Below, one piece after another: positions 43,396 through 56,596 of a stretch of DNA of 59,502 nt. This DNA comes from a bacterium. GTDB taxonomy: Bacteria > Patescibacteriota > Patescibacteriia > Magasanikbacterales > GWA2-37-8. The translations under genes were made by a program, and so were the position numbers. Under the pieces are notes generated by a model that searched no databases, had not been told where the DNA came from, and worked only from the letters and a program-made list of their open reading frames with translations. The number at the start of each line of letters is the position of its first letter. Position 1 is the first letter of the stretch. The stretch lies in contig JBDRCM010000002.1 in NCBI GenBank assembly GCA_043821725.1, forward strand, positions 1 through 59,502, written 5' to 3'.

Positions 43396-43405
43396 ATTTT
43401 TTTTG

Positions 43406-43807
43406 TGGAGGTGGCGGGAGTTGAACCCGCGTCCATTTGATTTTAATAATATCTTCTACATATTTAGTCCGCTTGTTGTTTGGAACCGCACGTAAGAAGC
43501 GAACAAAAACTTGCGGTTCGATTCGAAATTGCCTTTCAGAATTAAGGACTCGAAATTCCTAAATTCCTAAGCTCGATAATTGACACCGTCTTCACCTACC
43601 GAGCATGAGCGAGACGATGGGCAATCCCGCTAAAGCGGGCTGGGGTTTTTACGCCATTGCCGGAGCAAGAGAGTAGCTGTTAAACATTACTGCCACAGCG
43701 CTCTTTGCCCTATTGTACAAATTGGCATTTGTGTTTTTTGCCTTTTTAGGAGAAGGCGCTCCATATGCTGATATTACCAAAGATCAATGTCGAAGCCCAA
43801 CACCCCC
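43406..43807 (-). ncRNA. ssrA: tmRNA
   Basis: 5' GGGGGTG..GCTTCGAC; 3' GACGCGGGTTCAACTCCCGCCACCTCCA; tag ORF 43726-43649; adjacent to smpB. Confidence 0.95.
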
Positions 43808-43819
43808 TTGGGATAACAT

Positions 43820-44263
43820 TCATTTTAATTTAAGCGCGCGTTGAATTTCGCGATTTTGCGCTCTTTTCAGCAGAATATTCTTCTTATTGAATAATTTTTT
43901 TCCTTTTCCAATACCTATTTCTACCTTAATTAACCGACCTTTAGTATACACCCGAAGAGGTAAAATTGTCAAGCCCTTTTCATTCATTTTTCCCTTTATT
44001 TGTGCTATTTGATTTTTGTGAAGCAATAGTTTCCTCCAAACTTCAGGTTCGTAGTCATCCATTTTGCCTGCCGGCTTATATTTTGAAATATGCATATTGG
44101 TTATTCCCGGCTCGCTATTTTTTAAGGTGACATATGCCCCCTTTAAGTTTATCTGTCCGTTTTTTACTGCCTTTGTTTCAAAACCGCGCAACACAAGACC
44201 GGCCTCAATCTTATCAAGGATTTCATAATCAAAAAAAGCTTTTTTGTTGCGCGTAATTTCCAT
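43820..44263 (-). CDS. smpB: SsrA-binding protein SmpB
   Basis: NKKAFFDYEI...EAGLVLRGFE, RKLLLHK, GLTILPL, GKGKK. Confidence 0.98.
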   Translation of the reverse strand: MEITRNKKAFFDYEILDKIEAGLVLRGFETKAVKNGQINLKGAYVTLKNSEPGITNMHISKYKPAGKMDDYEPEVWRKLLLHKNQIAQIKGKMNEKGLTILPLRVYTKGRLIKVEIGIGKGKKLFNKKNILLKRAQNREIQRALKLK

Positions 44264-53435: not shown

Positions 53436-53840
53436 ATGCTGAAATTTGCGCCTCAAATATTTAATGACATAACAACAGGTAGCCAAACATGGATAATTTT
53501 AATGTTGATAGCGTTGTGGGTGATACCGTGGAAGGCCGTTGCTCTATGGAAGTCAGCAAGGAATAATCAAAAAGGATGGTTCGTGGTATTGATGCTTTTA
53601 AATACCATCGCAATAGTTGATGCCATTTATATTTTTATCTTCAGCGACAAAAAAGGAAAAGACAAATGTGGATGCGCGCCTGCAGTGGCTCAGCTTCCGA
53701 TTGTTAAAAAGACAGTAAAGAAGATAGTAAAGAAAAATAAGGAGGCAGTGGCTAAGAAAAATAGTAAGTTGAAAATGACTGCTAATCCAATGATTGCAAA
53801 AACTAAAAAAGTCAAAAAGAAAATTGTAAAAAAGAAGTGA
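53436..53840 (+). CDS. DUF5652-like membrane protein with a Lys-rich tail
   Basis: WKAVALWKSARNNQKGWFV..L.NT motif; basic low-complexity C-terminus. Confidence 0.75.
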   Translation: MLKFAPQIFNDITTGSQTWIILMLIALWVIPWKAVALWKSARNNQKGWFVVLMLLNTIAIVDAIYIFIFSDKKGKDKCGCAPAVAQLPIVKKTVKKIVKKNKEAVAKKNSKLKMTANPMIAKTKKVKKKIVKKK

Positions 53841-53912
53841 GAATTTATTAACAAAATATTTCATTAAACAGTTAGCGGATTAAATCCGCTAATTTTTTTT
53901 AAATCAGAGCTC

Positions 53913-53941
53913 TTGAATAAAAAAATTATTTATATTACAAT
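53913..53941 (+). promoter_or_regulatory. Sigma70 promoter of the candidate large ncRNA
   Basis: TTGAAT-N17-TACAAT, immediately after the terminator TTAGCGGATT/AATCCGCTAA-T8. Confidence 0.65.
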
Positions 53942-53947
53942 TATGAG

Positions 53948-54390
53948 TGCTTATGTGAACTGTGGCCGCGCAAATGCCCGGATCCGTCCCAGGGGATAGT
54001 AAAAGGGCGCGTTTCCATAGTTTGCATACGCATTGAGAAGCAGAGCGAGGCGCTGAGAGTTCGGTGAAAAGCTAAGATATTTTAATATCCGAACTTCGGG
54101 TTCTTTTCGTGGTAATGGAAAGATTCCCCCTCGGGAAGCGCTAAGCCCTGCTTCTCGCCAATGTATTCCTGTTAGGTTAACCATAATCGTTGATCTAATG
54201 GGTTGACATATTTGAGAAAACGTGCTTAAATATAGCAAGGCATGTTGCGTTCCGCTGGATCCAAAGTGGTGCGCGACCGCACAAAAAAAGGAGGTGAAAC
54301 ACCCAATCCGTCGAAGCAGGCGCAATTCGATTGCTACCGATTTCCCCCTGGGAAAAGCATTGATTGCGCTTTGCTTCGGCGGTTCTTCAC
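53948..54390 (+). ncRNA. Large structured ncRNA candidate, family unrecognised
   Basis: GC-rich island with many nested complementary segments; no credible ORF. Confidence 0.7.
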
Positions 54391-54447
54391 AAATACGTTA
54401 AAAAATGATAAAATGCATACACTGAATAAGTGTTTTTTTGTTTTTTT

Positions 54448-55386
54448 ATGCATTATTTATTTTTTGCGATAATCGGCTATATTCTGCTCGGAATTGTAAA
54501 CATTTTTGATAAATTTATTTTAACAAAAGCAATCAAGCAGCCACTGGTGTTTGTTTTTTACTCAACAGCGCTTGTGCTTCCCATTTTTTTATTTCTTCCT
54601 TTTGGTGTTTTAACGTTGGAAAGCCCGCTTCATTATTTTATTGCCTCTTTTGCAGGCATTTTTTTTGGCTTGGCTTTATGGGCAATGTACAAAGGCTTTC
54701 AAGAAAGCGAAGTAAGCCATGGAGCGCCTTTGCTTGGCGCTTCAACTCCTTTTTTTGTTTTAATTTTAAGCGTATTATTTCTTAGGGAGCAGTTAAGCGG
54801 ACAGCAGTTGGTTGGCATTATTATATTGGTTATCGGTTCAGTAATGATATCATTTGAAAAAAGCCGCAGGCATAAAGGCCTGCATGCGGGGCTTTTATAC
54901 ATTGTACTGTCAGGTTTTCTATATGCTGTTTCTCATGTTGCGTCAAAATATATTTATGATATTTACGGTTTTTACAGCGGTCTGGTTTGGACAAGGGGAT
55001 TTATGGCGCTTTTTGGAATTTGCTTGCTTTTTATCCCAATGGTAAGAAGGGAAATTTTTTGCAAAGACAATAGTCGAGCCACCAAAGCATCAATAAATGA
55101 GCTTAATCAAAAAACCAGCCGACCCCGCCAGATACTTTTAGTTGTTTTAAGCAGAGTTTTAGCTGTAGTGGCCGTGGTAATAATACAATACGCAATAGCA
55201 ATCGGGAGTGTTACCATTGTGAATGCATTGGCAGGCGCGCAATTCGCATTCATTATAGTTACGGTAATGCTTTTGACAAAATTCGTCCCTAAAATATTTA
55301 AAGAAAAATTTATTGTCGGTGAATTTGAGTGGGAGATGATTTCTGTGCTCATAATAGCAATTGGCATGATTGTTGTTATTACATGA
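54448..55386 (+). CDS. EamA/DMT-family transporter
   Basis: About 10 TMs in two repeats; EVSHGAPL..ASTPFFVLILSVLFLREQL. Confidence 0.88.
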   Translation: MHYLFFAIIGYILLGIVNIFDKFILTKAIKQPLVFVFYSTALVLPIFLFLPFGVLTLESPLHYFIASFAGIFFGLALWAMYKGFQESEVSHGAPLLGASTPFFVLILSVLFLREQLSGQQLVGIIILVIGSVMISFEKSRRHKGLHAGLLYIVLSGFLYAVSHVASKYIYDIYGFYSGLVWTRGFMALFGICLLFIPMVRREIFCKDNSRATKASINELNQKTSRPRQILLVVLSRVLAVVAVVIIQYAIAIGSVTIVNALAGAQFAFIIVTVMLLTKFVPKIFKEKFIVGEFEWEMISVLIIAIGMIVVIT

Positions 55387-56522: not shown

Positions 56523-56596
56523 GCGCGCCTAGCTCAGCTGGTTAGAGCGCCTCGTTTACACCGAGGAGGTCAGGGGTTCGAATCCCTTGGCGCGCA
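56523..56596 (+). tRNA. tRNA-Val(TAC)
   Basis: GCGCGCC/GGCGCGC acceptor stem, CCTCG-TTTACAC-CGAGG anticodon arm. Confidence 0.96.

Follow-up and report, generated by a model that had tools for sequence, protein, structure and literature searches.

A strongly folded, strand-specific orphan element upstream of an EamA-family transporter gene in a Patescibacteriota genome

We analysed a window of 59,502 nucleotides (nt), positions 1-59,502 of the forward strand of contig JBDRCM010000002.1 (assembly GCA_043821725.1), from a Patescibacteriota bacterium of the order Magasanikbacterales, GWA2-37-8. Near its 3' end, between a gene for a DUF5652 membrane protein on the 5' side and a gene for an EamA-family transporter on the 3' side, lies an element of about 445 nt that folds far more stably on the plus strand than expected by chance. 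The element has a single copy in its own genome (by BLASTN), matches no known RNA family and carries promoter motifs, and it is an orphan in every collection searched. We tentatively read it as a species-specific, stand-alone noncoding RNA (ncRNA) locus on the plus strand, perhaps with two nested RNAs. The source genome (G000; 1.01 Mb in 46 contigs, estimated to be 98.9% complete) has a GC content of 0.38. Over positions 53900-54399 the GC content is 0.43-0.49, compared with 0.26-0.31 just upstream and 0.29 just downstream. Below, G001 is a genome of the same genus, the other G numbers are relatives too, and L numbers are stretches of DNA from these genomes.

The plus strand of positions 53945-54400 has a minimum free energy (MFE) of -189.1 kcal/mol, against -135.3 +/- 5.4 kcal/mol in 100 dinucleotide shuffles (z = -10.0), none of which equalled it. 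This confirms that the structure as a whole is well beyond chance. By comparison, the ribonuclease P (RNase P) RNA and transfer-messenger RNA (tmRNA) of the same genome gave z = -7.4 and z = -4.3. The reverse complement of the element folded at -143.5 kcal/mol (z = -3.8). Each of four sub-segments was significant alone on the plus strand (z = -4.25, -4.79, -4.85 and -6.68). The same four gave z = -1.43, -5.00, +0.85 and -3.58 on the minus strand, where the signal is lost in two of them (-1.43 and +0.85). This loss, together with the 23 G-U pairs among the 159 pairs of the MFE structure, identifies the plus strand as the folding (RNA) strand. A first-pass annotation, made from the sequence alone, had described an unrecognised structured RNA of about this size. 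The analysis supports it in so far as the stretch is strand-specific, GC-rich, strongly folding and without an Rfam match.

The unconstrained fold is modular. It consists of a 5' hairpin, a branched domain, three hairpins (54168-54280), a linker and a 75-nt terminal hairpin (Table 1). A small G-rich hairpin, GUCC-CAGG-GGAU (53986-53997), caps module 1. Module 2 is closed by the helices GAGAAGCAG/CUGCUUCUC and GGCGCU/AGCGCU, includes the C-rich hairpin UUCCCCCUCGGGAA at 54124-54137, and is common to the MFE fold and the first-pass model. At the apex of module 4 is another C-rich hairpin, UUUCCCCCUGGGAAA (54341-54355), and UUCUUCAC comes after the module. Read on the minus strand, the linker becomes a terminator-like small hairpin followed by T7.

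The first-pass model was of a different kind, namely one RNA of about 440 nt with a nested long-range fold and a loop-loop pseudoknot, perhaps a ribozyme or an RNA that binds the 30S ribosomal subunit. Its helices can all form, and a base-by-base check found all eight of its listed pairings. The segments 53961-72/54270-81 pair at 11 of 12 positions (one C-A mismatch), GGAUCC at 53980-85/54257-62 at 6/6, 54005-14/54218-27 at 10/10 (three of them G-U) and 54058-64/54089-95 at 7/7. Those at 54031-46/54145-63 and 54308-35/54356-82 are real helices with bulges, and both also occur in the unconstrained MFE structure. In addition, GUGAA (53955-59) pairs with UUCAC (54386-90). The nested architecture fared less well. 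With its three long-range helices enforced, the energy was -171.5 kcal/mol against -189.1 kcal/mol for the free fold, 17.6 kcal/mol worse than the modular arrangement. Energy models cannot settle the choice between nested and modular folds, but they do not favour the nested one.

For the pseudoknot, UCCCAGGGG (53987-95) and CCCCUGGGA (54345-53) are indeed perfectly complementary over 9 nt. The match is not independent evidence and is not above chance alone, because both arms are near-palindromes of one motif, UCCC...GGGA, which recurs in three similar hairpins (C-rich copies UUCCCCCUCGGGAA at 54124 and UUCCCCCUGGGAAA at 54342, and a G-rich copy at 53986). The two C-rich copies are the only two in the whole genome, both inside the element. 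The perfect Shine-Dalgarno (SD) sequence that had been noticed, AAGGAGGTGA at 54288-54297, is likewise present in the unpaired A-rich linker with no ATG, GTG or TTG 3-13 nt downstream, but its occurrence is at chance level genome-wide, with one copy of the 10-mer against about 1.4 expected from our own base-composition estimate. The core AGGAGG has 295 sites in the genome, of which only 60 precede an open reading frame (ORF) of at least 50 amino acids (aa). The 16S rRNA was not found in the assembly, so the host's anti-SD sequence could not be read from it. The lack of a match to any known family would suit a novel large RNA, but no ribozyme family matched at E <= 10, the predicted fold shows by reading no GNRA or other hallmark tertiary motifs, and a promoter candidate inside the element argues against an indivisible RNA. 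Nothing in the analysis supported a ribozyme or ribosome-binding role, and we regard the single nested RNA as highly improbable.

That internal promoter candidate, P2, came to light through a covariance-model match in the relative G038, where an intergenic terminator is followed by a promoter. The -35 box (TTGACA) and 15 bases around the -10 box (AAAACGTGCTTAAAT) are identical in the two genomes. We scanned both strands of the source genome for the motif (TTGACA, 11-14 nt, [GT]TGN, then a -10-like hexamer) and found eight sites in 1.01 Mb. Each of the other seven has an ORF of at least 60 aa that begins 19-224 nt downstream. From this count, the chance of such a site in a 450-nt stretch is estimated at about 0.002. 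The first-pass annotation gave the RNA its own promoter. A promoter-like site, P1, does stand at 53913-41, but it is of a grade that arises by chance, and the far better match is the one inside the element. The start implied by P1 coincides with the beginning of module 1, and the site itself stands shortly ahead of the first base that is paired. This apt placement is only suggestive. Judged by its motif, P2 is the better promoter candidate.

Table 1. Features of the element and its surroundings (window coordinates).
Feature	Position	Strand	Details
DUF5652 gene	53436-53840	+	PF18893, E = 1.9e-21
Intrinsic terminator of the DUF5652 gene	53870-53902	+	Strong; 11-pair stem, then T run
P1, promoter-like TTGAAT-17-TACAAT	53913-53941	+	9/12 consensus matches; implied start ~53946-53949
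Module 1, 89-nt hairpin (helices of 5, 14, 4 and 4 pairs)	53946-54034	+	MFE -39.6 kcal/mol; z = -4.25 (plus) vs -1.43 (minus)
Module 2, branched, three hairpins	54035-54156	+	MFE -53.7 kcal/mol; z = -4.79
14-pair hairpin, G-U-rich, 7-nt loop	54168-54202	+	Within block 54160-54290: z = -4.85 (plus), +0.85 (minus)
P2, candidate internal promoter TTGACA-17-(gTGc)TTAAAT	54203-54231	+	Motif match; implied start ~54238
Hairpin (alternative use of the P2 bases in the P1 transcript)	54203-54238	+	Predicted fold
Hairpin (helices of 2, 7 and 5 pairs)	54240-54280	+	Predicted; 5' hairpin of the would-be P2 transcript
A-rich linker ACAAAAAAAGGAGGUGAAACACC	54281-54303	+	Contains the SD-like 10-mer (54288-54297); 3' part can form a GGUG-AAA-CACC mini-hairpin
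Module 4, 75-nt terminal hairpin	54308-54382	+	MFE -42.5 kcal/mol; z = -6.68
P3, the EamA gene's own promoter, TTCACA-17-(TGa)TAAAAT	54386-54414	+	10/12 consensus matches with TG; outside the RNA
EamA-family transporter gene	54448-55386	+	PF00892, E = 2e-11

If the element is an ncRNA locus, a P1 transcript would start near 53947, run for about 445 nt and end past the terminal hairpin, near 54390. A P2 transcript would start near 54238 and yield a nested 3' RNA of about 155 nt, in which a 5' hairpin (54240-80) would be followed by the A-rich, single-stranded linker and then by the terminal hairpin, so that the long and the short RNA would have their 3' hairpin in common. The predicted fold would then be four independently stable modules, not one nested domain. 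Module 4 is likely the 3' end, acting as a weak terminator. On the other side, the terminator of the DUF5652 gene shields the element from upstream transcription. We counted this framing (the upstream terminator, P1 at the start of module 1 and the terminal hairpin before the EamA promoter) in favour of an ncRNA locus. The last ~50 nt before the EamA start codon, which comprise the TG-extended promoter and a short 5' untranslated region (UTR), align across G000, G001 and G002, and the body of the RNA does not. This conservation up to the element's edge sets its 3' limit at about 54395, and in this respect the element behaves like an insert.

The only ORF after P2 is a frame of 76 aa, unsupported by other evidence, and we considered whether the element might be the mRNA of a small protein, either this near-leaderless ORF (ATG at 54242) or a short peptide read from a non-canonical start after the SD. 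The ATG sits 2-6 nt past the start implied by P2, the frame continues across the SD region for 76 codons without a stop, and G001 and G020 have, by reading, apparent small SD-led ORFs in the same spot upstream of EamA. However, the frame crosses the hairpin of greatest stability, and its end falls in T-rich sequence within the EamA gene. Pfam returned no family for three ORFs, and neither the 76-aa plus-strand ORF nor a 124-aa minus-strand ORF had a homologue among 5.8 billion proteins. When ORFs from the equivalent regions of relatives were compared with the element, the best of 653 queries reached E = 7.6e-4, which is chance level. A type I toxin mRNA (hok-like) was also considered and rejected, as the SD has no start codon 3-13 nt after it and, the EamA gene aside, none of the 11 ORFs (20 aa or longer) overlapping 53940-54440 is of the hydrophobic, toxin-like kind. 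A small-protein mRNA is in our judgement very improbable indeed, and as the product of P2 the 76-aa ORF is less likely than the nested ~155-nt RNA. The missing coding support and the missing start codon after the SD were counted for the ncRNA locus.

We compared the element with the 4227 models of Rfam 15, using the gathering scores and, over 53850-54480, a threshold of E <= 10. Nothing in the element reached a gathering score, in a search that included ribozymes, group I and II introns, riboswitches, the T-box and the OLE, ROOL, GOLLD, raiA and HEARO RNAs. At E <= 10 there were only seven hits (16-20.7 bits), all to unrelated small RNA models and mostly in the AT-rich flanks. The first-pass annotation had seen no signature of RNase P RNA, tmRNA, signal recognition particle (SRP) RNA or 6S RNA, and indeed no such model matches. 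A literature search, in sources available in part, turned up no paper on structured ncRNAs of Patescibacteria.

The housekeeping RNAs were each checked in turn. RNase P RNA (RF00010 and relatives) has no match in the element at E <= 10, and the genome's own copy is on another contig (G000:C26:12212-12676, or L002:1501-1965), where it aligns to the full model (positions 1-367) at 60.6 bits. It is 465 nt long against 367 model positions, and its score lies below the gathering score of 100, so routine Rfam annotation misses it. Its promoter reads TTGACA-17-(TGc)TATAAA. The tmRNA (RF00023), also without a match in the element, is at 43403-43807 of the window on the minus strand (142.8 bits). It adjoins smpB (43820-44263), and its alignment to the Rfam model shows a large insertion in the tag region; ARAGORN reads a tag of 25 residues. 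No match to 6S RNA (RF00013) was found in the element or the genome, and the element's size and branched fold differ from the ~185-nt rod with a central bubble.

SRP RNA, including divergent forms, was rejected as well, with no match to RF00169 or RF01854 in the element, nor in the genome at E <= 10. Its partner proteins were not found either. Searches of G000 recovered neither the Ffh M domain, nor an SRP54-type GTPase domain, nor FtsY, and no ORF with the SRP GTPase motifs was found in the genome. With Ffh and FtsY missing, an SRP RNA is not expected. The wider lineage gave the same picture. RF00169 was found in none of 41 genomes of the order (the source genome and 40 relatives), PF00448 gave matches at the level of the P-loop only (at most 22.7 bits, in 10 of the 41), and PF02978, the Ffh M domain, was found in none of 61 genomes sampled across the phylum, the source genome included. 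SRP subunits are absent in many bacteria of the Candidate Phyla Radiation (PMC8080830), and the absence here is thus known, not new.

Several results weigh against an RNA gene. One is the lack of relatives. BLASTN with the element found nothing in 60 relatives, including the two of the same genus. As a sensitivity control, RNase P RNA was recovered by BLASTN in 16 of 30 relatives (2/2 of the same genus and 14/18 of the same family). We also built two covariance models, R1 from module 2 and R2 from 54165-54283. Across 100 relatives R1 gave a single chance match, a 19.3-bit hairpin resembling a repetitive extragenic palindrome (REP) in G027. G001 and G002 yielded no match, and searching the syntenic loci with the filters switched off yielded none either. 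R2 had one match among 39 relatives (18.1 bits, in G038), which is the terminator plus promoter described above. The two spurious ORFs, used as probes in translated scans, had no match in genome, metagenome or viral contig collections, and BLASTN against phages and plasmids found nothing. With no homologue, the evidence by which a functional RNA is usually established, covariation and conservation, is out of reach. A DNA pattern of two hairpins returned eight loci on metagenome contigs, which we rejected as GC-rich chance matches without further similarity.

The remaining objections come from the element itself. P1-grade sites numbered 6 in the 1.7 kb scanned, against 4.8 +/- 2.4 in shuffles. 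The U-tract 3' of module 4 is weak (UUCUU) and poor compared with other terminators of the genome. The helices are long and nearly perfect, which in our judgement fits a young or selfish hairpin element better than an ancient structured RNA. The pairings with possible targets that we describe below are short and post hoc, and transcription, its start and end points and all function are things we infer from sequence.

We next turned to the corresponding site in relatives, which can be reached by synteny through EamA. A search of 45 relatives found EamA orthologues in 32. Rfam scans of 20 loci placed a tRNA beside EamA in 7 of them; in the window itself, a tRNA-Val lies near the EamA gene at 56523. 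Of 29 such loci in relatives, 21 have an ORF of at least 80 aa, or a contig end, no more than 140 nt from the EamA start. The gap free of such ORFs exceeds 150 nt in the other eight (8/29), and these gaps hold GC-rich items that are unlike each other and unlike the element. The correspondence is one of position, not of sequence.

In G001 the site holds a structured RNA of about 280 nt (L028:2348-2635, minus strand; -110.7 kcal/mol, z ~ -4.4 in mononucleotide shuffles). Like the element, it is GC-rich, folds well, has a promoter-like site, and is placed and oriented in the same way with respect to an EamA orthologue, here one of 60% identity. In the genomes of the same genus, EamA is no more than 56-60% identical. 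Unlike the element, it is only about 280 nt long and ends in a canonical strong terminator. The best local alignment between the two reached a score that 24 of 200 shuffles also attained, and R1 did not match it. We counted this framed RNA, upstream of EamA in the same orientation, for the ncRNA locus. Another orphan RNA of G001, about 300 nt long, lies downstream of the DUF5652 gene there (L004, minus strand, ~670-1000; z = -4.17); it was reached by synteny through DUF5652 and differs from the element. Both G001 RNAs have promoter-like sites and terminators, and neither had an Rfam match or a relative in our searches. At the DUF5652-syntenic position G018 instead has an ORF of 188 aa that is protein-coding by reading.

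Upstream of EamA in G019 is a 126-nt element (L038:2444-2569, minus strand; z = -4.98) behind a promoter of the GTGCTATAAT type. G002 has about 190 nt of structured sequence there (L029:1205-1395; z = -3.3), which may alternatively, by reading, encode a 54-aa Cys-rich peptide. In G014 a Hammerhead_3-like match (L030:384-448; 34.2 bits, E = 3.6e-4, full model, below the gathering score of 48.5) lies upstream of the EamA orthologue, in a block of more than 1 kb whose GC content reaches 0.78. G015 (L046) has, by eye, a similar CUGAUGAG...CGAAA motif, which Rfam did not report. The intergenic regions of relatives also contain REP-like palindromes of about 80-90 nt, of the type GTCATTGCGAGCG...CGCTCGCAATGAC, at L028:3344-3430 (G001), L019:1501-1590 (G027) and L030 ~530-640 (G014). 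They draw spurious model hits, of 27.3 bits for R1 and 50.3 bits for mir-548.

This variety at one site raises the question of whether the element is a non-functional passenger, either left over from foreign or mobile DNA or a selfish element rich in hairpins, lodged in an intergenic hot spot of variation upstream of EamA. The block of EamA, glycoside hydrolase and tRNA is conserved while the DNA directly upstream varies by genome, the items found there (in G001, G002, G019 and G014, and the REP-like palindromes) resemble neither one another nor the element, and the conservation of the EamA promoter right up to the element's edge is what an insertion would leave. The element's orphan status points the same way. 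Decaying DNA would not be expected to fold at z = -10 with a strand asymmetry that arises from G-U pairs, however, and no protein remnant was detected. The element is also single copy, and apart from A/T runs it has neither inverted repeats at its ends nor direct repeats in its flanks. Its promoter- and terminator-like framing, in the same orientation as the G001 and G019 elements, likewise counts against a passenger. We consider a passenger unlikely, if worth keeping in view.

The same neighbourhood suggests another alternative, in which the element, or the part after P2, is a structured 5' UTR that controls EamA in cis by attenuation or long-range pairing. It is directly upstream of EamA in the same orientation, as are the structured elements of G001, G002 and G019, and the weak U-tract makes read-through plausible. 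Moreover, positions 54281-98 of the linker are complementary at 17 of 18 positions to EamA codons 98-104 (54741-54758). Matches of that score to the EamA ORF number 28 genome-wide on the two strands, which by our own estimate puts the chance at about 0.006 per 450-nt stretch. The complementary site is a conserved Pro-Phe-Phe-Val codon run, which comes immediately after a GC-rich intragenic hairpin. In 11 other genomes tested, there was no comparable complementarity. For these two reasons, the conserved codons and the lack of a parallel, we judge the pairing probably coincidental. EamA also has a promoter of its own, which together with a short 5' UTR is conserved in G001 and G002, and the G001 element stops at a strong terminator before the EamA promoter. 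Known leaders and riboswitches are conserved in sequence, but the EamA-upstream elements have nothing in common. A cis-acting leader is distinctly unlikely in our view. Within the EamA frame itself we noted a terminator-like hairpin (window 54720-54758; nine pairs, six of them G-C, then a U-run) that arises from the conserved codons for G-A-P-L-L-G-A-S-T-P-F-F-V.

If the element is instead a stand-alone ncRNA, its function might be that of a base-pairing riboregulator or decoy. Two kinds of surface would be available for this. One is the A-rich linker, which contains the SD-like AAGGAGGUGA and is the sole unpaired stretch of any length, and the other is a pair of C-rich loops that could pair with G-rich ribosome-binding sites. 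In the predicted fold the two apical loops are nearly identical, CCCCCUC and CCCCCU. The complement of the former, GAGGGGG, occurs at 24 sites genome-wide, five of them in the ribosome-binding sites of ORFs, as a match of 7 nt only. Three of these five ORFs have GAGAGGGGGUGA in common (G000:C12:28859, C42:41053 and C45:4624, all on the minus strand). These three, of 91, 143 and 140 aa and each starting MNK, have the unusual ribosome-binding site GAGAGGGGGTGA and may be paralogous. We take the CCCCCUC/GAGGGGG match as a possible lead, not as evidence.

A bolder version of this idea would make the site upstream of the EamA, glycoside hydrolase and tRNA block a cradle of fast-turnover structured RNA genes, one per species. 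The element would then represent a new class of large riboregulator, in which an SD mimic and C-rich loops resembling an anti-SD titrate the 30S subunit or G-rich ribosome-binding sites. We think this quite improbable.

Beyond the housekeeping RNAs, large structured RNAs are rare, and new biochemistry has tended to come with each new class. If transcribed, the element would add an unclassified RNA of several domains from a lineage that is uncultured and has reduced genomes. It would also show that genomes of this kind can carry structured RNAs which are specific to a lineage and are replaced too quickly to be discovered by comparison. In practical terms, GC-rich intergenic blocks of Patescibacteria that are negative in Rfam can be real and yet orphan, and transcript data, not covariation, are needed to recognise them. 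Our finding is a single sequence from an uncultured organism, with strong statistics and a predicted biology.

Three known systems offer points of comparison. STAB-SD, in the cryIIIA mRNA of Bacillus, is an SD-like stabiliser near the 5' end of the mRNA with no start codon after it. The element likewise has a strong SD-like sequence with no start codon following. It differs in that this sequence would lie about 340 nt into the P1 transcript, or about 50 nt into the P2 transcript, with no downstream ORF. OLE, ROOL, GOLLD and raiA are large structured bacterial ncRNAs whose function is unknown and which occur in GC-rich intergenic regions of AT-rich genomes; these classes were defined by many homologues with covariation. 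The element, too, is GC-rich, multi-domain, free of supported ORFs, intergenic, strongly structured and hundreds of nucleotides long, but it has no homologues and no Rfam match to them at E <= 10, and its helices are longer and more perfect.

In Staphylococcus aureus, RNAIII and the Rsa-type regulators use C-rich (UCCC) hairpin loops to bind SD sequences. The element resembles them as a multi-hairpin structure of several hundred nucleotides with a putative promoter of its own in a low-GC host, with two apical C-rich loops and complementary G-rich ribosome-binding sites in the genome. It has no similarity to them in sequence or by covariance model and no encoded peptide, and the resemblance is one of possible mechanism only. 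By mechanism, then, the element would most closely resemble the multi-hairpin regulators with C-rich loops, such as RNAIII, and by its discovery signature the large ncRNAs of GC-rich intergenic regions, minus their conservation.

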